This document shows, piece after piece, positions 8,465-59,000 of a stretch of DNA of 64,000 nucleotides. A program made the position numbers and the translations under genes. The notes beneath the pieces were generated by a model. The model had not been told where the DNA came from. It did no database searches and saw only the letters and a program-made list of their open reading frames with translations. The stretch covers positions 192,001 to 256,000 of the forward strand of contig OZ253555.1 of NCBI GenBank assembly GCA_965262725.1, written 5' to 3'. Source of the DNA: Dehalococcoidia bacterium. GTDB lineage: Bacteria > Chloroflexota > Dehalococcoidia > UBA2979. How positions within the stretch are numbered: position 1 is the first letter of the stretch; each line of letters begins with the position of its first letter.

Positions 8465-8699
8465 TGGTCTCCCCTCTTCGTGCGTCTCGCGGACGCCGGG
8501 CCCGCGCGGGCGTTGCCGCCCGGTGCGGTGAGCCTCCTTGCAGCCATCCGCCGGCGCGGCGTCATCGGCGTCGGACGCGCCCGGCGTCGCGGCCTGTGGC
8601 CGCGGGCTCAGGATAGTGTCGGTCGTGATGACGTGGGGGGCACGCGCCGTGCCCCCCCGCGCCGCCCGGATCGGGCTCCGGTCACGCCGGGAGGCGTGC

Positions 8700-34998: not shown

Positions 34999-35077
34999 AC
35001 TACTGGCCACTGCATTCACTCGAATTCGCGCTTCGCGCGGCTGGATTCTGTCGGGCGAGAATCCGAAGTTCAACTGT

Positions 35078-35140
35078 TGGTGGAGCTGCGGGGACTCGAG
35101 CCGGTGACCTCTACGCTGCTGGGACTCGAACCGGCGACCA
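35078..35140 (-). other. Degenerate tRNA(Ala-like) 3' half with a duplicated T-arm (att-site scar)
   Basis: Minus strand reads ...GGTCACCGGCTCGAGTCCCCGCAGCTCCACCA preceded by GGTCGCCGGTTCGAGTCCCAGCAGC; no 5' half or D-arm. Confidence 0.7.
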
Positions 35141-35274
35141 GGGGCGCACGAGGCCTCTGGTGCCGGCGGCCCTCCGCCGGGCGGGGATTCCGGGTGCTGC
35201 ACGCGAGGCCGGGGGGAGCGTTCCGCGGCGCGGGCGGCTGGGGTACACTGCCCGCCGCAGGGAGGCGCTGCTTG

Positions 35275-35538
35275 ATGAGCCGACGACGCGTGGCCACCGT
35301 CCTTGTCGGCGCGTCCGCGGCGCTCGCTCCGACTCTCGCCGTCGCGCAGGAGAGCCGCGCGCTCGACGCGCCCGACTCCGCGGCGGGCGCGGTGCTCATC
35401 ACCGTCGCGGGCGTTGTCGCCCTCTTCGCGGTGGCGGGCGTCGGGTACCTCTACCTCCGCGCGAGCGGACTCGAATGGAACTTCCAGAAGAAGGAGTTGC
35501 CACCGGAGCCGGGCTCCGGCGGCCACCAGGAGTCCTGA
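35275..35538 (+). CDS. Small membrane protein (signal-like N-terminus plus one TM helix)
   Basis: TACACT -10 at 35244-35249, GGAGG RBS, hydrophobic AVLITVAGVVALFAVAGVGYLYL. Confidence 0.7.
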   Translation: MSRRRVATVLVGASAALAPTLAVAQESRALDAPDSAAGAVLITVAGVVALFAVAGVGYLYLRASGLEWNFQKKELPPEPGSGGHQES

Positions 35539-35580
35539 GCCGCCCCTCGGCGGTCGCAGGCGACGGGAGAGGAGCAGCAC

Positions 35581-36039
35581 GTGTTGCAGGTCGGCGAGAT
35601 GATGCCCGAGTTCAAGCTGCGCCACCGCGACGGCGACGTGACGAATGAGGACTTCGCGGGGAGTCCCACCGTCATGGCCTTCTACGCGGTCGCCTTCACC
35701 GGAGGGTGAGAGCGTGAAATGAAGGCCTTCCAGGAGCTCCTCGGGGAGTTCCAGGAGGCCGGCGCCCGCGTCGTGGGTGTCAGCTCGGATCACGCACCGG
35801 CCAACGGAGTCTTCCAGGACCAGTGCGGCACGGAGTTCCCGCTGCTCGCCGATTGGCCGCGCTACCGGACCCTGGACGCCTTCGGCGTCCGGAACGACCG
35901 GCTTCCGATCGCGGATCGCGTGACGTTCATCTTCGACTCGGGGGGCGTCTGCCGCTTCGTGCTGAAGGACCTCGACGAGGTCGAGTACCATGCGTCGGAG
36001 GCGCTGAACTCGGTGAAGGAGATGGCGGCGGGCGCGTAG
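35581..36039 (+). CDS. Selenocysteine-containing peroxiredoxin (AhpC/TSA, AhpE-like)
   Basis: GTG start after GAGGAG; MLQVGEMMPEFKL...AFYAVAFTGG-TGA(35707-35709)-EREMKAFQ...VVGVSSD...FPLLAD...RVTFIFD; the TGA sits at the peroxidatic TxxC position. Confidence 0.9.
35724..35760 (+). promoter_or_regulatory. Candidate bacterial SECIS hairpin
   Basis: GGCCTTCC-A-GGAGCTCC-TCGG-GGAGTTCC-A-GGAGGCC stem-loop starting 14 nt after the in-frame TGA. Confidence 0.7.
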
Positions 36040-36069: not shown

Positions 36070-36537
36070 CTACTCGGCCTGCGCGGAGTAGGCTCCCATC
36101 GCCTCGTCGATCTCGTGGGCGCGCGTCTCGAGGGCAACCAGCCTCTCGCGTAGCTCGCCGCCCATCTCGGTGAGTTGCTGGCTCTTCTGCTCGACGATCT
36201 CGAGCTGGCGCCTGGTGGCGTCGGTCACGAGCTGCACGCGCTCGCGGCGGGCCGGCAGCTCGCGGTCCGGGCGGAACGTCGCGCGGATCTGGGCGCGCAG
36301 CTGCTCAGCGTCGACCATCTCCTTGATCTCGGCGAGGCTCAAACCGAGCAACTCCTGGAGCTTCTTGATCAGCGTGACCCGCTCGATGTCGTTCTCGGAG
36401 TAGAGGCGGAAGCCGCCCTCCAGGCGGTCGGTGGGGGTGATGAGCTCGCGTTCCTCGTAGAAGCGGAGCGTGCGCTGCGTGACGCCCGTGCGCTCAGCGA
36501 CCTCGCCGATCTGAAATCGCTGGCCCGCGTCGTCCAC
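36070..36537 (-). CDS. MerR-family transcriptional regulator
   Basis: FQIGEVAERTGVTQRTLRFYEE...GFRLYS...LGLSLAEIK. Confidence 0.93.
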   Translation of the reverse strand: MDDAGQRFQIGEVAERTGVTQRTLRFYEERELITPTDRLEGGFRLYSENDIERVTLIKKLQELLGLSLAEIKEMVDAEQLRAQIRATFRPDRELPARRERVQLVTDATRRQLEIVEQKSQQLTEMGGELRERLVALETRAHEIDEAMGAYSAQAE

Positions 36538-36680
36538 AATGGCCTCCCGCGCCGGCGTCGCTTGTCGGAGCGCGCGGTGGGGATCGTAGGGAGCCGCGAT
36601 CCGGCACGTCAAGGAAGAGCGGCCCGGGGGGCCGCACGCGGTGCCGAGAGGCCCCGCGAGAGCGGGCCCCGAACTCCCGC

Positions 36681-37436
36681 TCAGTCGTCGTAGTCGTCCT
36701 CATCGGACGCCGCCGCCAGGCTGTAACCCGCTGGCAGCATCGGGGACGCTCGCTCGAGCGCTCGTTCCGTCGGCGGCGGAACCGCCGCGACCGCCGCAAC
36801 CGCCTCGGCGGTGCGGGGCGCGGCGACGACGAGTATCGGCGCGCCGGCGTCGCGCCACGCCGCGATCGTCTCGGGATCGAGTTCTGCCTCGAGGTGGCGC
36901 GCGTCGATCGCCAGGGGAGCGCGAAGCAGCGCCGAGTGGCGGCGCATCGTCGCCAGGGAGCGCGCGCTGAGGCGTCCGCTCCCGGTCGTACCGGGCGGTG
37001 GCTCCATCAGCGCGGCATCGGGCTCAAGCGCCGCCAGCGTTCGCACGGTCGTCTCATCGCAATCGGCGGTGATCAGGGGAACGCGGCCAAGCGCCGGGCG
37101 GCTGAGGGCTGAGGCCTCCGCGAGGAGATCGTCGAAGACGAGGAAGTCGACGCCCGCCTCAAGCAGCGAGGCCGCGTCGGCGCCGGTCGCTGCCGTCAGG
37201 CGGCACCCGATCGGTCGCGAGCCGGCAGCGGAGACGACCGGGGAGGCGCCGCCCGGCGGGCCGGTGTAGAGAAAGGCGACCGCTCCCGCCTCGGCGGCCG
37301 CGTCGGTGTCCTGCGCGTTCTCGACGGAGGCCACCACGACGACAAAGGAATGGGTGGGCTCCACCGCGCGCCCGAAGCCGATGGCCTGCGTGCGCGGCTG
37401 CGCGGCGCGCCGGACCAGCTCCCGCAGCTTGCTCAT
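36681..37436 (-). CDS. Hypothetical protein, possibly TIM-barrel/aldolase-like
   Basis: MSKLRELVRR...IGFGR...AGVDFLVFD; RBS AGGAG; directly downstream of tRNA-Thr. Confidence 0.7.
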   Translation of the reverse strand: MSKLRELVRRAAQPRTQAIGFGRAVEPTHSFVVVVASVENAQDTDAAAEAGAVAFLYTGPPGGASPVVSAAGSRPIGCRLTAATGADAASLLEAGVDFLVFDDLLAEASALSRPALGRVPLITADCDETTVRTLAALEPDAALMEPPPGTTGSGRLSARSLATMRRHSALLRAPLAIDARHLEAELDPETIAAWRDAGAPILVVAAPRTAEAVAAVAAVPPPTERALERASPMLPAGYSLAAASDEDDYDD

Positions 37437-37483
37437 GGTCACTCCTGGGCGCGTCGATGCGGTCAGGCGGAAGACGCGGGCGA

Positions 37484-37558
37484 TGGAGCCGGCGGGGGGA
37501 TTCGAACCCTCGGCCTGCTGTTTACGAAACAGCTGCTCTTCCTCTGAGCTACGCCGGC
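37484..37558 (-). tRNA. tRNA-Thr(CGT)
   Basis: GCCGGCGTAGCTCAGAGGAAGAGCAGCTGTTT-CGT-AAACAGCAGGCCGAGGGTTCGAATCCCCCCGCCGGCTCCA; full cloverleaf with encoded CCA; TAGCAT -10 upstream. Confidence 0.97.
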
Positions 37559-38361: not shown

Positions 38362-38523
38362 AAGGGGTCCTCTCGTCGGAAAAGCGCTACGCGGGCCCGC
38401 GGCGTGTCGGCCGGCGGCTCGGTGATCGCCTCACCCCAGCGAGGCGGCGGCCGCCGGGCGCCGGGCGCGCCGTCGGCGACCGGGCGAGGGTCCATCCGAT
38501 TCGCACCGGCGGGGAGATCCCGG

Positions 38524-39600
38524 TCATCCGGGCCGCGCCGAGAGGGGCGGCTCCGCCTCCGGCGGCGCCTCGCGCGAGGGGTGCGAGAGCACGTTCGGAT
38601 CATGGCCGGAGATGTCCTGCGTCCTGGACCAGGCGGCGAGGCGCAGGATGCCGCGCGAGCGGTCCTCCTCGAGCCGGTCGAGGAAGGCGTTCTCGATCTC
38701 GTCCGCCCCGGTGTTCAGGTGGAGCAGCTCGACGCCGGTGCTGGCGACGAGCGCGAGGACGCGCTGGAGGTACTCCTCCAGCGGACGCGCACCGAGGAAG
38801 GTGATGCGGAACTCGTTCCCCGTGCGGTGCCAGCTCAAAGACGAGAACTCATCGAGCGTGGGTACCTGCTCCTCGAAGGCCGCGAGGTTGCCGTCGATCT
38901 CGAGCGAGATCGTCCCCTGCTTGGCGAGACGCCGCATCTCGGACATCGGCCCGGTGTAGATCAGGCGGCCCTCCGAGATGATGCCGACGTCCGTGCAGAC
39001 CCGCTCCACGTCGCCGAGGATGTGCGTCGCGATGATGATCGTGCGGTCGCGGCCGGCGATCTGGCGGATCGACTCGATGATCTGCTTCCGTCCCGAGGGG
39101 TCGAGCCCTGAGGTCGGCTCGTCGAGGATGAGCAGCTCGGGGTCGTTCATGAGGGCGGCGGCGATCCCCACGCGCGTGAGCATCCCCGTGGAGAAGCCCT
39201 CGAGCTGCTGCGAGGCGGCGCTCGTGAGGTCGACCGCCTGCAGTAGCCGCGCGAGCTGGACCTTCGCCCGCTCGCGCGGCATCCCCAGAATGCTGCCGAC
39301 GAACTCGAGGTAGGCGATCGGCGTCAGGTGGCGCGGGAAGGTCGGGTTGGTCGGGAGGAAGCCGATGCGGCGGCGGAGGTCGGCGCGCTCGGGTGTCATG
39401 GTCTCCCCGAGCACGGAGAGCCGGCCGGCGGTCGGCTGCTGCAGCCCCAGCAGGAGGCGGAACGTGGTCGACTTGCCGGCGCCGTTGGGGCCGACCAGTC
39501 CGTAGACCGTCCCCTTCTCCACGCGCAGGTTCAGCGCGTTGAGAACGATGTAGCGCTTCTGGTAGATCTTCGTGAGGTCGGTGGTCTCCACGACCGTCAC
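38524..39600 (-). CDS. ABC-2 type transporter ATP-binding protein
   Basis: GPNGAGKST, FSTGM, LDEPTSGLDP. Confidence 0.94.
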   Translation of the reverse strand: MTVVETTDLTKIYQKRYIVLNALNLRVEKGTVYGLVGPNGAGKSTTFRLLLGLQQPTAGRLSVLGETMTPERADLRRRIGFLPTNPTFPRHLTPIAYLEFVGSILGMPRERAKVQLARLLQAVDLTSAASQQLEGFSTGMLTRVGIAAALMNDPELLILDEPTSGLDPSGRKQIIESIRQIAGRDRTIIIATHILGDVERVCTDVGIISEGRLIYTGPMSEMRRLAKQGTISLEIDGNLAAFEEQVPTLDEFSSLSWHRTGNEFRITFLGARPLEEYLQRVLALVASTGVELLHLNTGADEIENAFLDRLEEDRSRGILRLAAWSRTQDISGHDPNVLSHPSREAPPEAEPPLSARPG

Positions 39601-40630: not shown

Positions 40631-42049
40631 GTGGGCTACCAAGAGGTCAAGGCACTGATGGATTCGCGCGGCGTTCGCCGCGTGGAGCTGCGCGTCACGG
40701 ACCTGTTCGGCCGCTGGCAGCAATTCGCTATCCCGGCGGAGTTCTTGACGACCGATCTCCTGGCGAACGGGCAGGGTTTCGACGGATCCTCCCTGCGCGG
40801 GTTCCAGGAGATCCACGAGTCGGACATGCTGCTCATGCCCGACATCGACAGCGCGGTCTATGACCCCATGTCCTCTTCCGAGGTGCCGACGCTCGCGGTG
40901 ATCTGCGACGTGGCCGACCCCATCACGAGGGCCTCGTACTCGCGGGACCCGCGTAACGTCGGCCGCAAGGCCGAGGAGTACCTGCGCTCGACCGGCATCG
41001 CCGACACGGCCTACTTTGGCCCCGAGGCTGAGTTCTTCATCTTCGATGACGTCCGCTACGAGCAGGGCCAAGGCGCGGCCTTCTACTACCTGGATTCGGT
41101 GGAGGCGCACTGGAACAGCGGACGCGACGAGAAGCCGAACCTCGCCTACAAGATTCCCCCCAAGGAGGGATACTCGCCGGTCGCGCCCTTCGACACGCTC
41201 ACCGACATCCGCTGGGAGATGCATGAGGCGATGCACGCCGTGGGGATGAGGACCGAGGTCGGTCACCACGAGGTGGCGACGGCCGGGCAGGGCGAGGTCG
41301 CGACCCGCTTCGACACCCTCACGCGCCGCGGCGACTACAACCAGTGGTACAAGCACATCGTGCGCAACGTGGCGCGCCGCCACGGCAAGGTCGCCACGTT
41401 CATGCCGAAGCCGATCTTCGGCGACAACGGCACCGGGATGCACACTCACATGTCGCTGCGCAAGGACGGCGAGCCGATCTTCTTCGACGCGGATGGCTAC
41501 GGCGGCCTCTCCACGCTCGCGCGCCACTACGTGGGGGGACTGCTCAAGCACGCGCCGGCGGTGCTCGCCTTCGCCGCGCCGACGACGAACTCCTACAAGC
41601 GCCTGGTGCCGGGCTTCGAGGCGCCCGTCAACCTCGTCTACTCGATGCGCAATCGTTCCGCCGCGATCCGGATTCCGACCTACGACATGTCGCCGGGGGC
41701 GAAGCGAATCGAGTTCCGCCCGCCGGACCCCGCGTGCAACGCCTACCTGGCCTTCGCGGCGATGCTGATGGCCGGCCTCGACGGCATCCAGAACCAGATC
41801 GAGCCGGGTGACCCCATCGACCGCAACATCTACGAGCTGTCGCAGGATGAGGCGAGCGCCATCCCGAAGGTGCCGGGCTCGCTGACGGAGGCGATCGCGG
41901 CGCTGGAGGCCGACCACGAGTTCCTGCTCGCCGGAGGCGTCTTCACGACCGACCTGCTGGATCTCTACGTCGACTGGAAGCGGGACGAGATCGGCGAGCA
42001 CGGGCAGCGGCCGACGCCGTACGAGTACGAGATGTACTTCCACGTGTAG
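40631..42049 (+). CDS. glnA: Glutamine synthetase type I (GSI-beta)
   Basis: FDGSS, GPEAEFF, HHEVA, FMPKP..DNGTGMH, NRSAAIRIP, adenylylation-type NIYEL. Confidence 0.97.
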   Translation: MGYQEVKALMDSRGVRRVELRVTDLFGRWQQFAIPAEFLTTDLLANGQGFDGSSLRGFQEIHESDMLLMPDIDSAVYDPMSSSEVPTLAVICDVADPITRASYSRDPRNVGRKAEEYLRSTGIADTAYFGPEAEFFIFDDVRYEQGQGAAFYYLDSVEAHWNSGRDEKPNLAYKIPPKEGYSPVAPFDTLTDIRWEMHEAMHAVGMRTEVGHHEVATAGQGEVATRFDTLTRRGDYNQWYKHIVRNVARRHGKVATFMPKPIFGDNGTGMHTHMSLRKDGEPIFFDADGYGGLSTLARHYVGGLLKHAPAVLAFAAPTTNSYKRLVPGFEAPVNLVYSMRNRSAAIRIPTYDMSPGAKRIEFRPPDPACNAYLAFAAMLMAGLDGIQNQIEPGDPIDRNIYELSQDEASAIPKVPGSLTEAIAALEADHEFLLAGGVFTTDLLDLYVDWKRDEIGEHGQRPTPYEYEMYFHV

Positions 42050-42087
42050 GCCGCCCCGGCGGGGCCGGCACCGCCGGCCGCGGGAGC

Positions 42088-43407
42088 ATGCCGATGGATG
42101 ACCCGGTTTCGCGTCAGCATGTCCTGCAGGCGTGTCGCGATCACGATGTGAAGTTCATCCGCCTCTGGTTCACCGACATCCTGGGGGTGCTCAAGTCGGT
42201 GGCGATCACGGTGGAGGAGCTCGAGCACGCGCTCGCCGACGGCATCGCCTTCGACGGCTCCTCGATCCGCGGCTTCGCGCGGGCGCGGGAGACCGACATG
42301 GTCGCCGTGCCCGACGCGGCGACCTTCCAGCTGCTGCCGTGGCGGCCACGCGAGCAGGCAGTAGCACGTATGTTCTGCAATATCCACAAGCCCGACGGCG
42401 AGCCGTTCGCGGGCGACCCGAGGGCCGTGCTCAAGCGCACCCTCGCGCGCGCGGCCGGCGCCGGCTTCACCTTCTACGTCTCCCCGGAGATCGAGTTCTT
42501 CTACTTCCGCGACGCCCACGGGACCGAGCCGCTCGACGAGGGGGGCTACTTCGATCTCACCGCCTTCGACGCGGCCTCCGACCTGAGGCGTGAGACCGTG
42601 CTGATGCTCGAAGAGCTCGGCATCGGCGTCGCCCTCTCGCACCACGAGGTGGCGCCGAGCCAGCACGAGATGGATCTGCGCTACACCGACGCGCTGACGA
42701 TGGCCGACGCGATCATGACCTACCGGGTCGTGGTGAAGGAGGTGGCGCTCAGGCACGGGGTCCACGCCACCTTCATGCCGAAGCCCTTGACCGAGCACAA
42801 CGGGTCGGGGATGCACCTGCAGCTCTCGCTCTTCCGCGGCGAGAGCAACGCCTTCTACGAACCGTCCGACGAGCTGCGCCTGTCGCCGCTCGCGCGGCAG
42901 TTCGCGGCCGGCCTGCTGCACCACGCGCCAGAGACGCTGCTGGTGACGAACCAGTGGGTCAATTCCTACAAGCGGCTGATGCCGGGCTTCGAGGCCCCCA
43001 CGCACCAGAGTTGGTCGCCGCACAGCCAGTCGGAGCTGGTGCGGGTGCCGGCGCATCGCCCCGGGCAGGAGCTCTCGACGCGCATTGAGTACCGCGCGCC
43101 GGACGCGGCCTGCAACCCCTACCTCGCGCTGGCCGCCGTGCTCGCGGCCGGGCTTGCCGGCATGGAGGGGGGTTACGAGCTTCCGCCCGCGCACGACGCG
43201 ACGCCTGACGGGGAGGCCGCGGAGGCCCCCGCCCTTCCCTCCTCGCTCGGCGAGGCGATCGGGGCGTTCGACGGCTCGGAGCTGATGCGCGAGACGCTCG
43301 GCGATCACGTCTTCGAGACGCTGATCGCGAACAAGCGGGAGGAGTGGGCCCGCTACCGGGTCCAGGTCTCCCAGTACGAGCTCACGCAGTACCTGACGCT
43401 GCTCTAA
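42088..43407 (+). CDS. glnA2: Glutamine synthetase family protein (GSI-alpha-like, divergent)
   Basis: FIRLWFTDILG, FDGSSI, PEIEFF, HHEVAPSQHE, NGSGMH, RIEYR. Confidence 0.9.
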   Translation: MPMDDPVSRQHVLQACRDHDVKFIRLWFTDILGVLKSVAITVEELEHALADGIAFDGSSIRGFARARETDMVAVPDAATFQLLPWRPREQAVARMFCNIHKPDGEPFAGDPRAVLKRTLARAAGAGFTFYVSPEIEFFYFRDAHGTEPLDEGGYFDLTAFDAASDLRRETVLMLEELGIGVALSHHEVAPSQHEMDLRYTDALTMADAIMTYRVVVKEVALRHGVHATFMPKPLTEHNGSGMHLQLSLFRGESNAFYEPSDELRLSPLARQFAAGLLHHAPETLLVTNQWVNSYKRLMPGFEAPTHQSWSPHSQSELVRVPAHRPGQELSTRIEYRAPDAACNPYLALAAVLAAGLAGMEGGYELPPAHDATPDGEAAEAPALPSSLGEAIGAFDGSELMRETLGDHVFETLIANKREEWARYRVQVSQYELTQYLTLL

Positions 43408-43509: not shown

Positions 43510-44346
43510 CTAGACCCCGGGGTCGTGCAGGAAGGCGCGCACCTCGTCCGCCCAGATGTCGGGTGCCTGCCCGGCGTTGAAGTTCCCCTGGCTCGGGATG
43601 CGGACGCCGCGCGAACGCGGGATCGTGGCGAGGAACTTCTCGTGCGAGCGCCCGAGCTCGCTGGTCGTGCCGTGGATGACGAGAGTCGGCGCCTGGATCT
43701 TGGGCGTGCTCTCCCACATGTCGTGGTGGCACATCGCGTAGGGGCCGGCCCCCTCCCACCCCATGTTCCCGTATGCCGTCTCGCCCTCGTTCACGATCAG
43801 GTTGTTGATGAAGCGCTCGGTGACGCGTCGCATGTCCATTCCCGGTCGGGTTCCGCCGACCTTGTTCCAGAGATCGACGAGGTGGCTCCCGTCGGTCCGG
43901 GCTTCGAAGTAGCGGTGAATGCGCTCGTGGACGGCGCGGCGCGCGGGCGTCCCCCAGTTGAAGACCTCCTCGATCACCAGCTTGTCGACGCGCTCCGGGA
44001 ACTCGGCCGCCGTCACCGCGGCGATCTCCGAGCCGGTGTGCGTGCCGTAGAGGCTGGTGCGCTCGATCCCGAGCCCGTCGAGCAGCCAGGTCACGGCGCG
44101 TGCGAACTCGCGGAGAGTCGTATAGGGCGGATCGGGGCGGTCGGACTGCCCGTAGCCCATCGTCGACATCGCGATCACGCGGAACTCGCCGGCGAGCATC
44201 GGGGCGATATCGCGATAGGCCATGCAGGATGAGGGCGTGGCGTGCAGCATCACGAGGGGCTCGCCCGCTCCGATCTCGAAGTACTCGATATTGCCGTCCG
44301 GGCACTGCGCGAAGCCGCGCCGGAGCGTCGCCGTCGCCTGGGTCAT
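43510..44346 (-). CDS. Alpha/beta hydrolase fold protein
   Basis: [16 protein letters not shown], elbow GTHTG, PTLVIHG; RBS GAGGAGG. Confidence 0.88.
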
Positions 44347-44666
44347 CGACCGCCTCCTCCTCGTCGTCAGCTCGTGGTGACCGGGGAGAGGCCGCCGCCC
44401 CGATCGGGGCGGCGGGCCGCGGGAGTCCGGTCGCTCCGGGGATAGTAGATCAATGGACCGCCGGTGTGGAGGCGCGTGCGCGTGCGCGGGCACGGGATGC
44501 GTGTGTCGCAATGCCGGGGCCGGAGACGCCGCGGGAGACGGCGCCGGCGCGCGCTTCGATGGCGCTCCCTGCGGGCCGGACCTATACTCCTTTCGGCTCT
44601 GTGCGGCCCCCGCGCCTCATGGCGTGTCGGGCTGGGCATGAGACGGCCGAAGAGTGGAGCACGAGC

Positions 44667-44804
44667 GTGCCGAAGCGCACCTGGCAGCCGAAGCGCATCC
44701 CGCGCAAGCGGAAGCACGGCTTCCGCGCGCGGATGGCGACGCGGGGTGGACGCGCGGTGATCCGGCGCCGACGCGGGCGCGGGCGCTCACAACTCGCGGC
44801 CTAG
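44667..44804 (+). CDS. rpmH: 50S ribosomal protein L34
   Basis: (M)[35 protein letters not shown]; too short for the ORF track. Confidence 0.97.
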
Positions 44805-44828
44805 CGGTTTCTGGAGCGCAGAACCGGC

Positions 44829-45173
44829 GTGGCTGCCGCGGCAGACCGTCTGCGCCGGAGCACCGAGATCACTCGGACGTTGCGGGGGGGTAGGCGGGCG
44901 CGGCGGCGGTTGGTGCAGATCGCGGCCCGTCCCAACGGACTTCCGCGCAGCCGCTTCGCGCTCTCTGTGAGTAGGCGGGTCGGATCGGCGGTAACCCGCA
45001 ACCGCGTCAAGCGGCGCCTGCGGGCGATGCTGCGCGAGGGTCCGCCGCGCGGGGGGTACGACATCGTCGTGATCGCCCGCGAAGGGTCGGCATCGGCCGC
45101 GTACGGTGAGCTCAAGCGTGACGTGGAGCGCTGCTTCGGCGGAATCGGGCTCCGGCTCTCGGAGGATGCGTGA
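44829..45173 (+). CDS. rnpA: Ribonuclease P protein component
   Basis: [19 protein letters not shown] (RNR motif). Confidence 0.96.
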
Positions 45174-45424
45174 GTTTCCTGCTCAGGGGTGCCATCCGGA
45201 TCTATCAGGTGACGCTCTCGCCTCTGAGCGGCCCGGCGTGTCGCTACGCGCCGACGTGTTCGAGCTACGCACTCCTGGCGATAGAGCGGCACGGCGCCCT
45301 GCGGGGATCGTGGCTCGCCGCCCGGCGACTCCTCCGGTGCCGGCCGGGATCGCAGGGCGGGTACGATCCGGTCCCGGCGGAGTCGGCGCTGCGTGTCGGG
45401 CCGGGATCCGCGGTCGAGCGTTGA
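45170..45424 (+). CDS. yidD: Membrane protein insertion efficiency factor YidD
   Basis: [10 protein letters not shown]...RLLRC...GGYDPVP. Confidence 0.96.
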
Positions 45425-46551
45425 TGTTTCACGTGAAACACCCACGCCTCCCGCTCGTCGCGGCGGCGCTCGCCGCGCTCGTGCTCGCGACCGGGTGCGT
45501 CGGCGGCAACTTCTCCGAGCCGGTGGGGTGGGCATCCCCGGTCGAAGCCGGTGAGCTCCTGCTCGTGCAGAGCGAGCGCGGACGCCTGGACGCGCTCGAG
45601 TTCACGGCGAGCGGCGGACTGGTGGCGCGCTGGCACTACCCGATCTCCGACGATGAGGTGGAGCTGGATGCGATCTACGCGACGCCGATCGTGGAGGACG
45701 GCGTGATCTACCTCGCCGGCTACTCCGGCGACATCGTCGCGCTCAGCCTCGCGACCGGTCGCCCGTTGCCCGACTGGGGCCGGCCCGTTCGGCTCGATGG
45801 CCATATCGTCGCGACGCCCGCCTTCGACGGGCGGCGACTCTACGTCGCCACCGATCGCGGCCGGGTCACCGAGCTCGACGCGGCGACCGGGCAGGTCGGC
45901 GACGTGGTGCTCGAGGCTGGCGAGAACCACCCGATCTGGGGCGATCCCGTGCTCGCCGCCGGCACGCTCTACATCGCCGACATCGACCACACCGTGCGCG
46001 CGATCGGAGTCGATTCCGGGGCGGTGCGCTGGGTGCAGGTGCTCGACGGCGGCCTGGCGGCGCCGCTGACGCTCGATCGCGAGGTGCTGCTCGCGGGCGC
46101 CCTCGACTCGCGCCTCTACGCGCTCGACGCCGGGGCCGGCGGTGAGCCGCTGTGGAGCTTTCAGGGCGACGGGTGGTTCTGGTCGCGCCCGCTCGTCGCG
46201 GGCGACTCGATCTACGCGCCGACGACAGGCGGCACCGTCTATGCCATCGATCGGTTCTCGGGAGCCGAGCGCTGGAGCTTTGCCAGCGAGGGATCGCAGA
46301 TCCGCACGGCGCTGGTGCTCGTCGACGGCGTGCTCGTCGCCGTCGACCGCGACGGGGCGATCGTCGGGCTGGATCCGTCGAGCGGCGCAGTGCGCTGGCG
46401 CAGCACGATCGACGGCGACGTTCTCGCCGATGGGCTCGTGCGCGGATCGGAGCTCCTCTACGTGACCACCGATGGCGACCTGGTGCGCGTCCATCCGCAG
46501 GACGGCCGCATCGAAGAGCTCTCTCGTCTCTCCGCGTTGCAGGACGGGTAG
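45424..46551 (+). CDS. PQQ-repeat beta-propeller lipoprotein (BamB-like)
   Basis: Lipobox LATG-C, repeated A(L/I)DxxxGxxxW motifs; start may instead be GTG at 45433. Confidence 0.88.
   Translation: MFHVKHPRLPLVAAALAALVLATGCVGGNFSEPVGWASPVEAGELLLVQSERGRLDALEFTASGGLVARWHYPISDDEVELDAIYATPIVEDGVIYLAGYSGDIVALSLATGRPLPDWGRPVRLDGHIVATPAFDGRRLYVATDRGRVTELDAATGQVGDVVLEAGENHPIWGDPVLAAGTLYIADIDHTVRAIGVDSGAVRWVQVLDGGLAAPLTLDREVLLAGALDSRLYALDAGAGGEPLWSFQGDGWFWSRPLVAGDSIYAPTTGGTVYAIDRFSGAERWSFASEGSQIRTALVLVDGVLVAVDRDGAIVGLDPSSGAVRWRSTIDGDVLADGLVRGSELLYVTTDGDLVRVHPQDGRIEELSRLSALQDG
45425..45440. promoter_or_regulatory. parS: parS centromere-like site
   Basis: Exact consensus palindrome TGTTTCACGTGAAACA, about 3.2 kb from parAB. 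Confidence 0.96.
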
Positions 46552-46557
46552 GCGACC

Positions 46558-47541
46558 GTGCCGATTGGCTTCGTCTGGCAGACGTTCCTCGAGACACCGC
46601 TCATCAACGTGATGGTGGCGCTCTCGGCGTTCACCTTCGGCTCGTACGGGCTCGCGATCCTGCTCTTCACCGTCATCTCGCGCGCGGTCACCTTCCCCCT
46701 GACCCTGCGCACGCTGCACTCGATGCGCCACCTGCAGGACGCGCAGCCGCGCATCCAGGAGATCCAGAAGAAGTACTCCGACCCGAAGCGGCGCTCCCAG
46801 GAGACGATGAAGCTCTACAAGGAGCTCGGCGTGAACCCGCTGGGCTGCCTGGGACCGCAGCTCATCCAGCTTCCGGTCTTCATCGCGCTCTACCAGGTCA
46901 TCCGCATCACGCTGGGGACGACGCCCGAGAGCGTGCTCTCGCTCTCCGGGCGCCTCTACGAGATGGACGTCGTGCAGGGGGCGATTCCGCTCTCGACGAG
47001 CTTCGTGCTTCTCGATCTGCGCGAGAACGGGCCGATCTGGATGGTCGCCATCGTCTTTATGGCGATGTGGCTGCAGCAGCGCATCTCCAGCGGCCGCACG
47101 CGTGCGACGGCCGCTCCCAACGCGCAGCAGGCCCAGATGAACCAGATGATGCAGTGGATGATGCCGGCCATGTTCTCGTGGTTCGTCTTCATCGTTCCGG
47201 CGGGGCTCGGACTCTACTGGGCCGCGAGCACGGTTATCGGTATTGTCTTGCAGTGGATTTTCGTGGGGCCCGGGGACTTCACCTGGGGCTCCCTGATTCC
47301 GCCCCGGGCGCGCGAGTCGCTCGGCCTCTCGCGCGCTGGCCCGACGCAGGCGCGCCGGCCCCGCGAGTCGGTCGACGCCACGCGGTCGGGAACCGAGGAG
47401 AAGCAATCCGAAGCGGATGTCGAGACAAGGACGGATGATGGACACAGTGGAGGTCAGCGGAAGGACGGTCGACGAGGCCGTCGACCGAGCGCTCGGTCAG
47501 CTCGGTCTCAGTCGCGATCAGGTCGACGTCGACGTCGTTAG
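46558..47541 (+). CDS. yidC: Membrane protein insertase YidC (short, monoderm type)
   Basis: GVNPLGCL..QLPVFIALY, PAGLGLYW. Confidence 0.96.
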   Translation: MPIGFVWQTFLETPLINVMVALSAFTFGSYGLAILLFTVISRAVTFPLTLRTLHSMRHLQDAQPRIQEIQKKYSDPKRRSQETMKLYKELGVNPLGCLGPQLIQLPVFIALYQVIRITLGTTPESVLSLSGRLYEMDVVQGAIPLSTSFVLLDLRENGPIWMVAIVFMAMWLQQRISSGRTRATAAPNAQQAQMNQMMQWMMPAMFSWFVFIVPAGLGLYWAASTVIGIVLQWIFVGPGDFTWGSLIPPRARESLGLSRAGPTQARRPRESVDATRSGTEEKQSEADVETRTDDGHSGGQRKDGRRGRRPSARSARSQSRSGRRRRR

Positions 47542-48460
47542 CGAGGGTCGCTCCGGCTTCCTCGGTATCGGTTCGGAGGAGGCTGTCGTGCGGGTCACGG
47601 CGCGGGGCTCCTCCGAGGCGGTCGGTTCAGGCGAGGAAGCGGACAGGCCGGCCCGGAGGCGCGGCCGCCGAGGCGGCCGCGGCCGCCGCCGCGACGGGGG
47701 CGCCCGGGCCCAGGCGGACACCGATGAGCCACCCGTGCGAGAGGAAGCCGCCCCGGCCGTCGCCGATCCCGGGGACGACGAGCCGCCGCGGCGGTCGGAG
47801 GTGGAGGGCTGGGGCGACGGTGGTCGTCGCGGTGATCGTGAGCGTCCCGGCGGTCGCGGCCCGGCCGGTCGCTCCCGCGGCGCACGGAGGTTCCGCGGGA
47901 CGCCGCTTGAGGGCGCCCCGCGTATCCCCGGCCAACCGCCGGAGCCGCCCGAGCCGGTGGCGGAGTGGGAGGACGCTGTCGACCTCGCCGGCCGCACGCT
48001 CCGCGACATGCTCAACCTTCTGGGTTTCGCGGAGACGGAGATCCGTGGCCGCGATCCGGAGACGGCCGGCGACGGCGTGGGCAGAACAGAACAAGTGTTC
48101 GATATCGTCGCCCTCGACGACGACACGGCGGATGAGCTCGGCGGGCTGATCGGCCGCCGCGGCCAGACGCTCGTGTCGCTGCAGTACCTCCTCAACGTGA
48201 TCGTCTCCAGGCGCCTCGGGGGCGATCACGTCTTCGCAGTGGATGCCGCCGGCTACCGCCGCCGCCGCGAGGAGTCGCTCGTGGAGATGGCGCGGGAGAT
48301 CGCGGGCGAGGTCCGTGAGACGGGCGACGTGATCACGCTCGAGCCGCTCTCGGCTGCGGAGCGGCGCATTATCCACCTCGCCATCGAGCAGGAGGAGGGC
48401 GTCCGATCCGAGAGCGTCGGCGAGGGGGACGAGCGACAGGTCGAGGTGCTTCCGGAGTAG
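47435..48460 (+). CDS. jag: RNA-binding protein Jag/KhpB (EloR)
   Basis: Jag_N GRTVDEAV...GFLGIG, KH LIGRRGQTL, R3H ERRIIH. Confidence 0.95.
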   Translation: MMDTVEVSGRTVDEAVDRALGQLGLSRDQVDVDVVSEGRSGFLGIGSEEAVVRVTARGSSEAVGSGEEADRPARRRGRRGGRGRRRDGGARAQADTDEPPVREEAAPAVADPGDDEPPRRSEVEGWGDGGRRGDRERPGGRGPAGRSRGARRFRGTPLEGAPRIPGQPPEPPEPVAEWEDAVDLAGRTLRDMLNLLGFAETEIRGRDPETAGDGVGRTEQVFDIVALDDDTADELGGLIGRRGQTLVSLQYLLNVIVSRRLGGDHVFAVDAAGYRRRREESLVEMAREIAGEVRETGDVITLEPLSAAERRIIHLAIEQEEGVRSESVGEGDERQVEVLPE

Positions 48461-48673
48461 CCACGCCCGGGTCGCGGCGCTCCGCGGAGGCCGTGGAGGC
48501 GGTCGATCCGGCGCGCTCTATACTCGCAGGGATCTGAGTGCTCCCCGTCTTGGGACGCCGGGGCCGCGGCCTCGCGGGGCGGCCGGCTTGGGAGTCCGGG
48601 AGCCGGGATCGCATGGCGCGGCGCCCGTCGGGGCTCCGCGGGCGAGGCGCGCGGGTGTCGGGGGCCGGTCGAT

Positions 48674-49477
48674 GTGAGCGTCGTGATCGCGTTCGCCAAC
48701 CAGAAGGGCGGCGTCGGTAAGACGACGACCGCGGTGTCGGTCGCGGCGGGCGCGGCAGGGCGTGGCGTGCGCGTGCTCCTGGTCGACGCGGATCCGCAGG
48801 CGAACTCGACCTCGGCTCTGGGCGCGCGGGCGGGCGAGGGCGGTCTCTACGAGGTGCTCGTCGGCGGCCTTGCGCCGGCGGACGCTGTCCTCGAGACGGG
48901 GACGCCCGGTCTCTCGCTCCTCCCGGCGAGCGGCGATCTCGCCGGCGCCGCGGTGGAGCTCGTCTCGGCGGCGGCGCGCGAGCATCGACTTCGCCTCGCC
49001 CTCGAGGGCGTGCGCAACGACCACGACCTGCTGGTGATCGACTGCCCGCCGTCGCTCGGGCTGCTGACCGTGAATGCGCTGGTGGCCGCCGATCAGGTCA
49101 TCGTGCCGGTGCAGTGCGAGTACTTCGCGCTCGAAGGGCTCGGGCAGCTGGCGCGGACGATCGATCTCGTGCGGGCGAACCTGAACCCGGGACTGCGGCT
49201 CGGCGGCGTGATTCTCACGATGTTCGATGCGAGGACGAAGCTCGGTCGGCAGGTTGAGGAGGAGGTGCGCCGGCACTTCGATGCCACCTTCGAGACGGTG
49301 ATCCCGCGCTCGGTGCGGCTGGCGGAGGCGCCGAGCCATGGGCAGCCGATCCAGATGTACGATCGCCGCTCGCCGGGCGCGCTGGCGTACGAGAGTCTCG
49401 TCAGCGAGATCCTCGCTCGATTGCGCCTGCCGGCGGCGAGGGAACGATGCGCGGAAGGGGCGGATAGTGGCGCGTAG
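48674..49477 (+). CDS. parA: Chromosome partitioning ATPase ParA/Soj
   Basis: NQKGGVGKTT, DCPPSLG, QCEYFALEG, LAEAPSHG. Confidence 0.97.
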   Translation: MSVVIAFANQKGGVGKTTTAVSVAAGAAGRGVRVLLVDADPQANSTSALGARAGEGGLYEVLVGGLAPADAVLETGTPGLSLLPASGDLAGAAVELVSAAAREHRLRLALEGVRNDHDLLVIDCPPSLGLLTVNALVAADQVIVPVQCEYFALEGLGQLARTIDLVRANLNPGLRLGGVILTMFDARTKLGRQVEEEVRRHFDATFETVIPRSVRLAEAPSHGQPIQMYDRRSPGALAYESLVSEILARLRLPAARERCAEGADSGA

Positions 49478-50381
49478 GAGCGGGCTCGGACGGGGGCTCG
49501 AGGCGCTGATCCCGGTGACCCCGGGAGAGACGGATCCCAGGTTGCCCGTGCGCGAGGTCGCGGTCGATCGCATCGCGCCGAATCCGCAGCAGCCCCGCAC
49601 GGCGATGGATCCGGAGGCGCTTTCGGAGCTCACCCGCTCGGTGCGCGAGCACGGCGTGATCCAGCCGCTGCTGGTGTCCGAGCTCGGCCGCTCTGAATTC
49701 GACGACGAGGACCTCGTCGAGGAGCCGCGCTACCAGCTGATCGCGGGCGAGCGCCGGCTGCGGGCGGCGGAGGCGGCCGGCATGGAGCGTGTGCCGGTCG
49801 TCGTGCGTCAGAGCACCCCCCAGCAGCTGCTCGAGCTCGCCATCGTCGAGAACGTGCAGCGCGCGGATCTCAGCCCGCTCGAGGAGGCCGTCGCCTACCA
49901 ACGCCTGGTGGAGGACTTCGGCCTGACGCAGCAGGAGGTCGCGGCCCGGGTCGGCCGCTCGCGCACGGCGGTGGCCAACACGATCCGGCTGATCGAGCTC
50001 CCGGACGCCGTGAGGCGCTCGCTCGCGCTCGGCGAGATCACGGCCGGCCACGCACGCGCCATCCTCGGACTCGCGAGCGGGGAGGCGCGTGTCGCGGCGT
50101 GGCGGCGCGTCGTCGCCGAGGGGATGAACGTACGTCAGGTGGAGAGCATGGTGCGGGCGGCGGTGGCTCCGCCGCCGCCGGAGATCCGTCGCGATCGCCC
50201 CCGCGGGGCCGCCGACGACCAGTCGCGGGCCGTGGTGGAGGCCCTGGAGAGGGCGCTCGGCACGCGCGTGCGCCTGAGGCGCGGCCGGCTGGGGCGGGGC
50301 TCGCTGACGATCCACTTCTACAGCGACGAGGAGCTGGACGGCGTGCTGGAGCGGTTGCTGGAGGGGGAGGAGATCCGATGA
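49467..50381 (+). CDS. parB: Chromosome partitioning protein ParB/Spo0J
   Basis: GLGRGL, NPQQPR, IAGERRLRA, ENVQRADL, HTH. Confidence 0.97.
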   Translation: MARRSGLGRGLEALIPVTPGETDPRLPVREVAVDRIAPNPQQPRTAMDPEALSELTRSVREHGVIQPLLVSELGRSEFDDEDLVEEPRYQLIAGERRLRAAEAAGMERVPVVVRQSTPQQLLELAIVENVQRADLSPLEEAVAYQRLVEDFGLTQQEVAARVGRSRTAVANTIRLIELPDAVRRSLALGEITAGHARAILGLASGEARVAAWRRVVAEGMNVRQVESMVRAAVAPPPPEIRRDRPRGAADDQSRAVVEALERALGTRVRLRRGRLGRGSLTIHFYSDEELDGVLERLLEGEEIR

Positions 50382-53450: not shown

Positions 53451-55085
53451 GTGTCGAGAGTGGAGCTGTTCGAGTCTATCCGACGGATGGCGAGGGAGGA
53501 GGAGCTGTCGATCCATGAGCTGGGACGCCGGCATGGCGTGCACCGGCGCACGGTGCGGCAGGCTCTTGGGTCGGCGATACCCCCGGAACGCAAGCAGGCG
53601 ACCCGCGTGGCCCCGAAGCTCGGGCCGTACGTCTCGGTCATCCGGGGCTGGCTCGTGGACGACCTCAGCGCGCCGCGCAAGCAGCGGCACACGGCCCGGC
53701 GCATCTGGGAGCGCCTCGTCGACGAACACGGGGCGACGGTGGCCGAGCCCACGGTCCGCGCCTGCGTCGCGCGCCTGCGTCGCGAGATCCAGGGCGGGCG
53801 CGCGGTTGTGACGATCCCGCAGGTCCATCCTCCCGGCGAGGAGGCGGAGGTCGACTTCGGCACGGTGACGGTGTGGCTGGAGGGCGTCGAGACCCGGCTG
53901 GCGATGTTCGTGATGCGGCTCTCGCATTCGGGGCGGGCGGCGCACGTCTGCTTCGTCGGCGAGGGCCAGGAGTCTCTGCTCGAGGGGCACGTGGTCGCCT
54001 TCGAGCGGCTCGGCGGAGTGCCGCGGCGCATCCGCTACGACAATCTGACGGCGGCCGTCACCACCGTGCTGCAGGGACGCGAGCGCCTGCAGACCGAGCG
54101 CTTCATCGCGCTCCGCTCGCATTACGGCTTCGACAGCTTCTTCTGTGAGCCCGGCATCGAGGGCGCGCACGAGAAGGGCGGTGTGGAGGGCGAGGTCGGC
54201 CGCTTCCGCCGGCGGCACTTCGTGCCGGTCCCGAAGGTGGCGACCCTCGGCGAGCTGAACGAACGAGTGCGGGAGGCGGACCGCACCGACGACGCCCGGC
54301 ACATCGAGAGCCGCCTCGCCACCGTCGGCGAGATGGGAGAGAACGAGAAGGCCTCGCTGCGTCCGCTTCCGGCGGAGCGCTTCGACCCGTCAATCCCGCT
54401 GCGCGCGAAGGTCGACCGCAAGGCGCGCATCGCCGTGCGTAGCTCCCGCTACTCGGTCCCGGCGGCCTATGCAGGCCGGAAGCTGGACGTGCGGCTGTCC
54501 GGGAACAGCCTGACCGTGTGGGCCGAGGGGCGTGAAGTCGCCCACCACGAGCGCAGCGCCCGCACCGGAGCAGAGGTCCTGCTGCTCGACCACTATCTGG
54601 AGGTGCTCGCGCGCAAGCCCGGGGCGGTCCCGGGCTCGGTGGCGCTCCAGCAGGCGCGTGCGAAGGGACACGTCACAGCCGAGCATCAGCGCTTCTGGGA
54701 CCGCGCCCGCCGCAAGCTCGGCGACCGCGCGGGCACGCAGGCGTACATCGAGGTCCTGCTCCTGCATCGCCATCTTCCCTTCACGGCGGTGCACGCCGCG
54801 CTCGGGACGGTCAACAGGATCCAGTCGGTGAACCCCGAACTGGTCGCCATCGAGGCGCGCCGTCTCGCCGACCGCAGGCCACCAGACGCCGCCGTCGAGA
54901 GACCGCACCTGGAGCGCTACGACCGACCTGCCCCGCTCCTCGATGGCTACGATGCGCTGCTCTCGGGTGATTCCCGATGGCCCGGCACGTCGCCGGGCGG
55001 GCGCTCCCGCGCTCCGCGGTCTGCCGAGAACGCGTCGCACACCACCACAACCGCCGTCACCGCTGCGGTGTCGACGGCACGCTGA
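53451..55085 (+). CDS. istA: IS21 transposase IstA
   Basis: HTH, KQRHTARRI, EVDFG, YDN, EKGGVE DDE residues. Confidence 0.96.
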   Translation: MSRVELFESIRRMAREEELSIHELGRRHGVHRRTVRQALGSAIPPERKQATRVAPKLGPYVSVIRGWLVDDLSAPRKQRHTARRIWERLVDEHGATVAEPTVRACVARLRREIQGGRAVVTIPQVHPPGEEAEVDFGTVTVWLEGVETRLAMFVMRLSHSGRAAHVCFVGEGQESLLEGHVVAFERLGGVPRRIRYDNLTAAVTTVLQGRERLQTERFIALRSHYGFDSFFCEPGIEGAHEKGGVEGEVGRFRRRHFVPVPKVATLGELNERVREADRTDDARHIESRLATVGEMGENEKASLRPLPAERFDPSIPLRAKVDRKARIAVRSSRYSVPAAYAGRKLDVRLSGNSLTVWAEGREVAHHERSARTGAEVLLLDHYLEVLARKPGAVPGSVALQQARAKGHVTAEHQRFWDRARRKLGDRAGTQAYIEVLLLHRHLPFTAVHAALGTVNRIQSVNPELVAIEARRLADRRPPDAAVERPHLERYDRPAPLLDGYDALLSGDSRWPGTSPGGRSRAPRSAENASHTTTTAVTAAVSTAR

Positions 55086-55101
55086 CCACAGGAGGCACCC
55101 G

Positions 55102-55884
55102 ATGACAGCACCCCTCACCGACCAGGCCGCGGAGCTGACAATCGAGGCGATCTGCCGCGAGCTCCGTCTCCCCACCGTCAGGAAGCAGGCGCTCCCGCTC
55201 GCCGAAGCCGCGGTCCGAGACCGGATCACCCATCTGGGCTATCTCGCCGAAGTGCTGGGAGCCGAACGCGATGACCGTGAGGAGCGGCGCCGTCAGCGCC
55301 GTATCGTCGAGGCGCGGTTCCCGCGTTTCAAGTACCTCGCCGACTTCGACCTCGAGGCGGCGCCGACAGTCGACGCGCCGGCGCTCGCCACGCTGGAGCG
55401 CTGCGACTGGGTCGAAAGGGGCGAGCCCGTCGTCCTGCTCGGTGACAGCGGCACCGGGAAGTCACACCTGCTCATCGGCCTCGGCATGGCCGCCTGCCAC
55501 CTGGGGCTGCGCGTGCGGTACATGACCACGGCCGCCCTGGTGAATGAACTGGCCGAAGCGTCGGATGATCGCGCGCTCTCACGCCTCGTCGCCCGCTACG
55601 GCCGCCTCGACCTGCTCTGCCTGGATGAGTTCGGGTACGTCCACCTCGACCCGCGCGGTGCCGAAATGCTGTTCCAGATCCTGACCGAGCGCGAGGAACG
55701 GGCATCGGTCGCCGTCGCCTCCAACTCCCCGTTCTCCGAGTGGGGCCGCATCTTCACCGACCCTCGTCTCGCCGCGGCCGTCGTTGACCGCCTCACCTAC
55801 CGTGCCCATATCATCGAGACCGGCACCGAGTCCTACCGGCTCCGGGCCTCGACCTCCCCGAGAGGAGGTGCCCCAACGACCTGA
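55102..55884 (+). CDS. istB: IS21 helper ATPase IstB
   Basis: GDSGTGKSH, LDEFGY, AVVDRL, GTESYR; RBS AGGAGG. Confidence 0.96.
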   Translation: MTAPLTDQAAELTIEAICRELRLPTVRKQALPLAEAAVRDRITHLGYLAEVLGAERDDREERRRQRRIVEARFPRFKYLADFDLEAAPTVDAPALATLERCDWVERGEPVVLLGDSGTGKSHLLIGLGMAACHLGLRVRYMTTAALVNELAEASDDRALSRLVARYGRLDLLCLDEFGYVHLDPRGAEMLFQILTEREERASVAVASNSPFSEWGRIFTDPRLAAAVVDRLTYRAHIIETGTESYRLRASTSPRGGAPTT

Positions 55885-56670: not shown

Positions 56671-57197
56671 TGGCTCACCCCAGGGCAGGGCTTGCACCGG
56701 ATGCGGACAGGCCACCCTACCGCCCTGCTCGCCACGTCAGGACTCCCACCATCGCACTCATGCTGACATCAGAGTGTTCATGAGCGATTACACAATTGAC
56801 AATGCCAGCCTGGAGGCGTACGGTCGTCGTGCCCAGAGTTGCAGGAGAGCGAACGTGGCGGAACTGGACCGTTTCGAAGAGACTTTCGCCGTCGGCGGCT
56901 GGAGCCGCCTACAACTACGCCCGCGGTGGCGCTGCCTCAGACAGCGAAGTCATCGACAAGCTGATGAAGTCCCTAGCGAAGACTCTGCGAGACCAGAGCG
57001 GCGTCCCTGGCCTGCACGAGATGGGTGTCGTGGTTGCGGGTGGGCTCGGCCTTGCACCCGACGAGCCCTTCGCAGCGTTGGACCGCATCGTCCGCGATCA
57101 CCACGGTCACCGCCACACGAAGGTCGCAGCACAGGCCGCAGGTCGGTGCCGGCGGCGGTTCGTGCCACAGTCCGACTCACAAACTCCGGAGGTTTCC

Positions 57198-58439: not shown

Positions 58440-59000
58440 GTGGAGCGACGACCAGCGAGCCTCATTCTCGACGCCAGTTGCCTGCTCAACCTCTATGCCA
58501 CTGAACGCTTCGGGGAGATCGCAGCGTCGTTGCGCGAGCAAGTCGCCGTCGCGGACTACGTCCTCGAGGGGGAAGCTCTCTTCATCCGCCGTGAGGCTTC
58601 GGCTGATGGGGAGGACGACCAAATCCTGGTGGACCTGTCTCCGTTTGTGTCCGAGGGCTTGGTCGAAGTGATGCGCCTGGCGAGTCCAAACGAAGAGACC
58701 ACGTTCGTGACTCTTGCCGCCCTGATCGACGACGGTGAGGCGGTGACCGCTGCTCTGGCCGTCCACCGTGGGTGCTCCGTCGCAACCGACGACCGCAAGG
58801 CTCGGCGTGTCATTGCTGAACAGGCCCCGAGGGTCCCGCTCGTCTCCACACTTGACCTCGTAAGCCAGTGGGCGGAGACGATGTCCGTGCCTCGAGGCGA
58901 GCTTCGGACCGCGCTGGCGCGCATGCGCTCCGGCGCTAGCTACGTGCCCGGTCCCCGCGATCCCCGCTACGGGTGGTGGCTGGAGGTCATGCAAGGCTAG
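58440..59000 (+). CDS. PIN-domain protein
   Basis: LILDASCLLN, DDGEA, ATDDRKAR PIN acidic motifs. Confidence 0.85.
   Translation: MERRPASLILDASCLLNLYATERFGEIAASLREQVAVADYVLEGEALFIRREASADGEDDQILVDLSPFVSEGLVEVMRLASPNEETTFVTLAALIDDGEAVTAALAVHRGCSVATDDRKARRVIAEQAPRVPLVSTLDLVSQWAETMSVPRGELRTALARMRSGASYVPGPRDPRYGWWLEVMQG

Follow-up and report, generated by a model that had tools for sequence, protein, structure and literature searches.

The stretch of DNA analysed here, 64,000 nucleotides (nt) from the genome of a Dehalococcoidia bacterium and called the window in what follows, carries on its plus strand at 35581-36039 what is very probably one single gene, coding for an AhpE/BCP-like peroxiredoxin with selenocysteine (Sec) as the peroxidatic residue, U43. 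One frame runs from a GTG at 35581 to a TAG at 36037-36039, and its sole interruption is an in-frame TGA at 35707-35709. Reading this TGA as Sec gives a full coding sequence (CDS) of 152 residues, preceded by a ribosome-binding site, GGGAGAGGAG, that can be read from the sequence at 35565-35574 (+), 6 nt upstream of the GTG. Otherwise the same frame breaks into two open reading frames (ORFs), an N-terminal one of 42 residues with the GTG start that ends at the TGA (35581-35709, +) and one of 106 residues with an ATG start, which is the piece called by the ORF finder (35719-36039, +). The first-pass annotation of this DNA had pointed out that the frame of the ORF starting at 35719 reaches back to the GTG at 35581 and its ribosome-binding site, and all these elements were found in place. 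On read-through, the product around the TGA is ...FYAVAFTGG-U-EREMKAF..., so that the active-site motif reads A36-x-x-x-T40-G-G-U43, plus Arg113. Specifically, on the plus strand, the codon of Ala36 (GCG, 35686-35688) falls in sequence and translation at the position of the Pro in the motif PxxxTxxC, and the translation and the homologue alignments place the active-site Thr40 at the ACC in 35698-35700. The conserved active-site Arg113 (CGC, 35917-35919) is invariant in two alignments, of 17 and of 60 sequences, and pairs with the Arg of AhpE.

The assignment of the TGA to the peroxidatic position comes from the homologues. A HMMER search over 1.84 billion representatives gave 5003 matches at E <= 1e-3, and in the best 150 of these the column of the TGA was occupied by Cys in 138, by Trp in two, by Asp in one and by Gly in one, with a gap in the remaining eight, which are fragments. 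The closest full-length Cys form among these best 150 representatives is 49% identical and reads FYPMSFTGGC. In the HMMER alignment to AhpE of Mycobacterium tuberculosis (Rv2238c) the string 'aftggC' pairs with 'aftgiC', which puts the TGA on the catalytic Cys. The alignment of the read-through product to AhpC/TSA homologues that had been suggested in the first-pass annotation thus places the TGA on Cys as anticipated there. Its central proposal, that the peroxidatic Cys of a peroxiredoxin is here replaced by Sec (TGGU), is supported by this alignment together with the conservation of the TGA in the related loci described next.

We scanned genomes for relatives of the gene and obtained nine loci (L001-L009), six of them orthologous (L001-L006). 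All six have an in-frame TGA at the same column after FTGG, which makes seven of seven with the window. They all belong to Chloroflexota/Dehalococcoidia metagenome-assembled genomes (MAGs), L001-L004 being 84-92% identical to the window and L005-L006 about 40%. Two of the other loci were discarded as orthologues, L008 because it is a CxxC redoxin and L009 because the match was a spurious one of 24 residues. The 42 codons upstream of the TGA are conserved as protein, with 22 of 42 residues identical to L005, to be compared with 40 of 109 downstream. In these same upstream codons the ratio of synonymous to non-synonymous differences from the window is 5:2 in L001, 10:7 in L002, 13:6 in L004 and 9:9 in L003. 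The databases hold these genes in pieces. Each of the 11 close homologues from the databases, at 72-99% identity, is a fragment of 104-107 residues that starts at a Met four residues past the TGA column, and the public records of the named cluster members consist of 42-residue pieces labelled 'hypothetical protein', 'redoxin domain-containing protein' or 'peroxiredoxin' together with 107-residue pieces labelled 'peroxiredoxin'.

These data bear directly on a pseudogene or an assembly error, in which the catalytic codon would have been lost to a nonsense mutation, with at most a 106-residue remnant still made. The two pieces seen by gene callers and in the public records would fit such a situation, and so would the failure to see any Sec machinery in the window or to find a canonical Sec insertion sequence (SECIS) element. 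However, the same TGA is present in seven of seven independent assemblies, down to 40% identity, and decay would not be expected to produce, in several lineages, a stop at precisely the column of the catalytic Cys. Besides, the ribosome-binding site and the start codon are kept, the upstream codons are conserved like the downstream ones, and synonymous changes equal or exceed the non-synonymous ones against each close relative. We consider this explanation very improbable.

It could also be that the UGA is read without selenium, either by a near-cognate tRNA inserting Trp, Cys or Arg or because UGA stands for a standard amino acid, in which case the downstream hairpins described below would have no function other than slowing the ribosome, or none at all. 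The homologues P0022 and P0119 (FTGG-W-TNEL and TPG-W-RKEG), with Trp in precisely the Sec/Cys column, speak for this, and neither of the hairpins fits the consensus SECIS. On the other hand, of the 35 window genes that were checked 20 end in TGA, which is hence not a general sense codon, and the code is therefore standard and not reassigned. The column is that of a redox-active Cys in the large majority of homologues (the 138 of 150 given above), a classic Cys/Sec pair, and with Trp, Arg or Gly in its place a peroxiredoxin would be inactive. For the Trp of the databases, a gene caller that applies a table with TGA as Trp is a possible explanation, and compensatory changes maintain both hairpins. 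Reading without selenium thus appears improbable to us. Actually, the two Trp might be TGA codons translated under another code table, and P0022 and P0119 hence further Sec forms. Another five homologues (P0024, P0033, P0064, P0121 and P0136; 36-49% identity) are only 105-108 residues long and start 1-4 residues past the Sec column, which suggests a Sec clade reaching well beyond the seven DNA sequences examined. Taking together the Cys column of the homologues, the fragment records, the TGA in six of six loci, the constraint upstream and the standard code, we regard pseudogene, sequencing error and codon reassignment with high confidence as ruled out, as judged from sequence comparison.

The fragments could finally reflect a naturally split enzyme, in which the 42-residue product and a 106-residue product made by re-initiation at the ATG at 35719 would assemble into a protein with no catalytic Cys or Sec. 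Indeed this ATG lies 9 nt past the TGA, and the called ORF of 11 of 11 close relatives starts at the corresponding Met. However, L005 and L006 have no Met there (...U-T-N-E-F-T/S-G-F...) and yet both hairpins and the TGA are kept in them. Assembled from the two products, the protein would also lose its peroxidatic residue while retaining Thr40 and Arg113, and the purine run before 35719 that resembles a ribosome-binding site is only the GAGCGTGAA stretch. A split enzyme is, in our view, extremely improbable.

Read through, the product is recognised and modelled as one peroxiredoxin domain. The match to the Pfam family PF00578 (AhpC/TSA) spans the TGA, scoring 90.7 bits where the cutoff is 26 (E 9.1e-26), and extends over residues 4-125, covering positions 1-122 of the 124 in the profile. 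The AlphaFold2 model, obtained with a 60-sequence alignment, is a single compact domain with a predicted local distance difference test score of 97.6 and a predicted template modelling score of 0.92. Residue 43 stands in this model at the start of the helix 41-52, which is the first turn of helix alpha2 in the thioredoxin-type fold, and Cys is at least 90% conserved at this position in the 60-sequence alignment. Foldseek comparisons with solved peroxiredoxins (Bcp1, Bcp4, AhpE, BcpB and AhpC) gave template modelling (TM) scores of 0.82-0.91, and 0.74 for the Prx1 chain 7e4u_C. By sequence the best match in the PDB is AhpE (71.8 bits, against 59.7 bits for Bcp-4), whereas BCP structures match the model equally well or better. 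The Bcp/PrxQ equivalogs of NCBIfam were not reached (NF006960, 48.7 bits versus 140; NF053650, 42.2 bits versus 260). Since no NCBIfam equivalog was reached, the PrxU model considered below included, and since AhpE is the closest solved protein by sequence, we class the product as an AhpE/BCP-like peroxiredoxin and not a PrxU orthologue. It has two Cys, C82 and C124, whose invariance is limited to the close relatives, C124 being missing from L005 and L006. Either of them may serve as a resolving residue, or the enzyme may depend, like the 1-Cys AhpE, on an external reductant.

Downstream of the TGA, and inside the CDS, there are two adjacent hairpins. Hairpin 1 (35724-35760, +), found by folding and by RNAalifold, has a lower stem, a bulged U35729, an A-A mismatch and an 8-bp upper stem with the loop UCGG at 35741-35744. 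Hairpin 2 (35761-35781, +), for which folding, pairing counts and the recoding test agree, has a 9-bp stem with the loop GUC at 35770-35772. Their loops start 31 and 60 nt after the UGA, respectively. The first of them had been described in the first-pass annotation, and it is present and folds as was said there. The 91-nt segment has a minimum free energy (MFE) of -45.1 kcal/mol (z = -3.18), and none of 200 shuffles folded equally well. Both hairpins lie in identical columns of all seven sequences despite a differing peptide (KAFQELLGEFQEAGARVVGV in the window versus TGFAEVQDDLGAAGAQVLGI in L005). Unguided RNAalifold recovered both, with compensatory changes in eight of the 34 predicted pairs. 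In the case of the two specified helices 97.2% of the cells are paired (100% for hairpin 2), as against 38-50% with slid partners; changes on both sides are found in five pairs, three of hairpin 1 and two of hairpin 2, and the covariation score was reached by none of 500 shuffles.

To these comparisons we added synonymous recodings, 2000 per lineage, drawn with each genome's own codon usage. The natural 75 nt were outfolded by only 2 of them in the window, 58 in L004, 154 in L005 and 2 in L006, and the nine of nine pairs of hairpin 2 were attained in 55-78 of the 2000 in each of these four lineages. Hairpins 1 and 2 are real and conserved, and conservation (the TGA in seven of seven, the compensated helix and the recoding test) raises the hairpin above chance. 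RNAalifold also drew a smaller hairpin at 35695-35710 (+) that holds the Sec codon itself, where the codons for F-T-G-G pair with the UGA (UUCACC with GG-UGA-G, six pairs in seven of seven sequences); the conservation of the amino acids largely accounts for it. Searched with Rfam at permissive thresholds, the region 35560-35900 gave only a chance miRNA match (E 7.3).

Several observations weigh against a selenoprotein. The consensus for bacterial SECIS elements (bSECIS) is set out in PMC13188914 (Fig. 2 legend), where the rules given are a loop of 3-9 nt with an upper stem of 4-16 bp, a G at loop position 1 or 2, a spacing of 16-37 nt between UGA and loop and an MFE <= -7.5 kcal/mol. With our own implementation of these four rules, which the positive controls fdhF of Escherichia coli and L007 pass, neither the window nor any of L001-L005 gave a consensus SECIS (0 of 6), and L006 had one match that is not shared. 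All nine pairs of hairpin 1 were kept in 907 of the 2000 recodings of the window lineage, and this hairpin is there therefore mostly fixed by the peptide and the codon bias. Hairpins of this size appear at 5-8% of the positions in the window DNA, which has 70% GC; in our background scan one of at least 8 bp at the same spacing was met in 7.9% of 42,580 sampled window positions. Back-translated with the codon usage of this genome, the Cys-form peptides on average fold about equally well, with a mean of -27.5 versus means of -28 to -31 for the Sec forms, and the idea that Sec-form peptides are specially hairpin-prone was dropped, there being no excess over the 138 Cys forms. Behind the covariation there are essentially two clades: L001-L004 group with the window, and L005 forms a pair with L006. 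Hairpin 1 by itself is weak evidence.

Other points of this kind concern the protein and the genome. The motif Pro is replaced in the lineage of the window, where Ala36 is shared with L001-L004; this replacement had been noticed in the first-pass annotation and is borne out by the sequence. L005 and L006 keep the Pro (FYP-x-AFTGG-U), and V, I or A stands in its place in several Cys-type homologues as well, so that this branch does not strictly require the motif Pro. The NCBIfam model of the Sec-peroxiredoxin PrxU (NF040737) was not reached, the score being 25.8 bits for a cutoff of 270. No tRNA-Sec was found by ARAGORN or Rfam in the 64-kb window, which would not be expected to hold one. In the same way, NCBIfam models at E <= 1e-10 detected no selA, selB or selD among 102 ORFs of the window (all 101 of at least 200 residues plus the ORF 36070-36612), and 64 kb are not expected to carry them.

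The departure from the consensus is different in each of the hairpins. Hairpin 1 agrees with the rules on loop size, stem length, spacing and energy and fails only that on the position of the G. The claim that a SECIS-like element lies at 35724-35760 thus stands for its conservation and its right distance from the UGA, but needs to be qualified, the hairpin not being canonical, with no G among the loop's first two positions. Hairpin 2 matches the loop pattern N1-G-U-N-N2 but is 60 nt from the UGA. A conserved Val codon supplies, with its first two nucleotides, the G and U of its loop, and their invariance therefore proves nothing. Section 11 of PMC13326102 states that 12.6% of the 57,630 BSepDB entries have no canonical SECIS, and for this reason we have not counted the non-canonical element against Sec. 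We entertain, as a tentative and rather doubtful idea, a two-part class of SECIS in which the SelB-binding element would be the 9-bp GUN-triloop hairpin at 35761-35781, with the 37-nt hairpin 1 as a side arm. With hairpin 1 set aside in this way, only some 14 + 9 = 23 nt would separate the UGA from the hairpin 2 loop, inside the working range. If true, there would be a clade of AhpE-like Chloroflexota selenoperoxiredoxins whose SECIS eludes consensus-based finders.

What we infer is Sec insertion itself, the occurrence of selA, selB, selC and selD in the genome (proposed too in the first-pass annotation), the binding of SelB by one of the hairpins, the peroxide substrate and the reductant. The UGA at 35707-35709 would be recoded by the bacterial Sec pathway, through SelB with GTP and Sec-tRNASec, and the recoding would be directed by the mRNA structure inside the CDS, the adjacent conserved hairpins at 35724-35760 and 35761-35781. 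Sec43 would then occupy the peroxidatic position beside Thr40 and Arg113, its selenolate would reduce the peroxide, and the selenenic acid formed would be recycled by a thiol partner.

We have looked for further signs of Sec use in the window and in the related loci. ARAGORN reported in the window only a tRNA-Thr and a 97-nt 'tRNA-Gly(tcc)' at 38522-38618 (+). The latter is no tRNA-Sec and probably a false positive; it is without Rfam support and overlaps, on the opposite strand, the ABC-ATPase ORF 38524-39600. A second selenoprotein gene was not found in the window among 365 TGA-bridged frames, of which five were left after filtering on the GC content of third codon positions (GC3). These five are the peroxiredoxin, the in-frame stop of the gene upstream of it and three marginal frames (58864-60276 +, 36483-37544 + and 56976-57377 -) with GC3 of 0.78-0.80, versus 0.91-0.94 in real genes. 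The DsbA-like ORF at 7670-8920 (-) was considered as a second selenoprotein and rejected, its active site CPFC being the Cys form. It matches NF041057, the 'Rcas_1661 family thioredoxin-like (seleno)lipoprotein' (E 3.3e-36), over profile positions 83-245 of 247, and the true start of this gene probably lies well inside the ORF of 416 residues. In L001-L007 the scan of TGA frames gave, besides the peroxiredoxin and an upstream stop in L003, only two frames unlike real genes, and Pfam identified no selenium genes among the 19 ORFs of L005-L007. As context from the literature, in PMC1794560 the Chloroflexi appear already in 2006 with the Sec trait and three selenoproteins, and section 11 of PMC13326102 counts 49 and 46 selenoprotein genes in two Dehalococcoidia MAGs, which stand in the bacterial top ten of BSepDB.

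The genes next to the peroxiredoxin suggest no functional link to it. Upstream there is a small signal- or transmembrane-like ORF (35077-35538, +) that ends in GSGGHQES followed by TGA, 42 nt before the GTG of the peroxiredoxin and in frame with it. Such a small membrane-anchored ORF in the peroxiredoxin frame is also found in L003. We considered its TGA as a second site of recoding and judged it an ordinary stop. The other neighbour is a convergent MerR/HspR-like regulator (36070-36612). Two tandem glutamine synthetase genes occupy 40631-43407, and at 44100-50381 (+) there is a run of rpmH, a BamB-like gene, yidC, jag, parA and parB, a set that is usual near the replication origin of bacteria. 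Further on, at 53451-55884 (+), an IS21-family transposase (E 4.6e-71) and its IstB helper ATPase (E 6.4e-74) stand beside a histidine-kinase gene, next to which this mobile element is inserted.

The gene and its 11 close database relatives are recorded as fragments, and gene finders routinely miss such selenoproteins. Annotated in this way, a peroxide-detoxifying enzyme would be absent from the metabolic reconstructions of these Dehalococcoidia/Chloroflexota genomes, and their dependence on selenium would be under-counted. The gene would also add an AhpE/BCP-like branch to the known Cys-to-Sec conversions of peroxiredoxins, and its tandem hairpins, off the SECIS consensus, offer a small and well-defined case for what SelB recognises. 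In the literature, BSepDB entries and supplements aside, we found no description of Sec in a peroxiredoxin of AhpE type or of Dehalococcoidia, and the gene may already be catalogued there.

PrxU of Eubacterium acidaminophilum, attributed to Sohling in 2001, is said to have been the first T/SxxU Sec peroxiredoxin. For the TxxU peroxiredoxins PMC1794560 gives 12 members and five independent Cys-to-Sec conversions, and 'Peroxiredoxin (Prx) PF00578 TxxU' is listed in PMC13188914, which cites the PrxU paper of 2001. The gene described here joins this established family, as an AhpE/BCP-like branch in Dehalococcoidia. It shares with the T/SxxU proteins the AhpC/TSA fold, Sec where the peroxidatic Cys would stand, mRNA structure after the UGA within the CDS, and Cys-type homologues that are far commoner. 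It differs from PrxU in that the protein is shorter (152 residues versus 233 in the profile) and nearest to AhpE rather than to the AhpC/Prx1 type, and from the PrxU family in the Ala at the motif Pro and in a downstream RNA that is off the SECIS consensus.

The comparison with AhpE (Rv2238c), a 1-Cys peroxiredoxin, is closer. The match extends over residues 2-127 (E 5.9e-19, 71.8 bits; TM 0.82-0.86), the size is the same, and the two proteins have in common the active-site string FTG-x-C, FPLL(S/A)D-(F)WP and R-x-TF, with Arg113 paired to the Arg in 'ANRGTF'. However, AhpE has Cys at the position of the TGA, the identity is only about 31-33%, and the window protein has the two Cys C82 and C124. 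Compared by structure, the model is equally or better matched by BCPs, with TM scores of 0.89-0.91.

A different kind of relative are the Prx-like thiol:disulfide oxidoreductase selenoproteins (UxxC), to which L007 belongs. This locus, from an unrelated MAG, codes for an AhpC/TSA redoxin 33% identical to the window protein, with a TGA at 196-198 in SADW-U-RFC and a canonical SECIS that extends to about position 230 (a stem of 7 bp whose GUC loop is 21 nt away from the UGA). In L008, from Kordiimonas, the equivalent site is in the Cys form, WCPYC. The Pfam family is the same, whereas the window protein is of the TxxU form and has no UxxC or CxxC. As to the RNA, the canonical bSECIS of E. coli fdhF is likewise a stem-loop within the CDS just 3' of the UGA. 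It passes all the rules, with a spacing of 18 and the loop GGUC, whereas in the gene described here no single hairpin does so and two stand in tandem.

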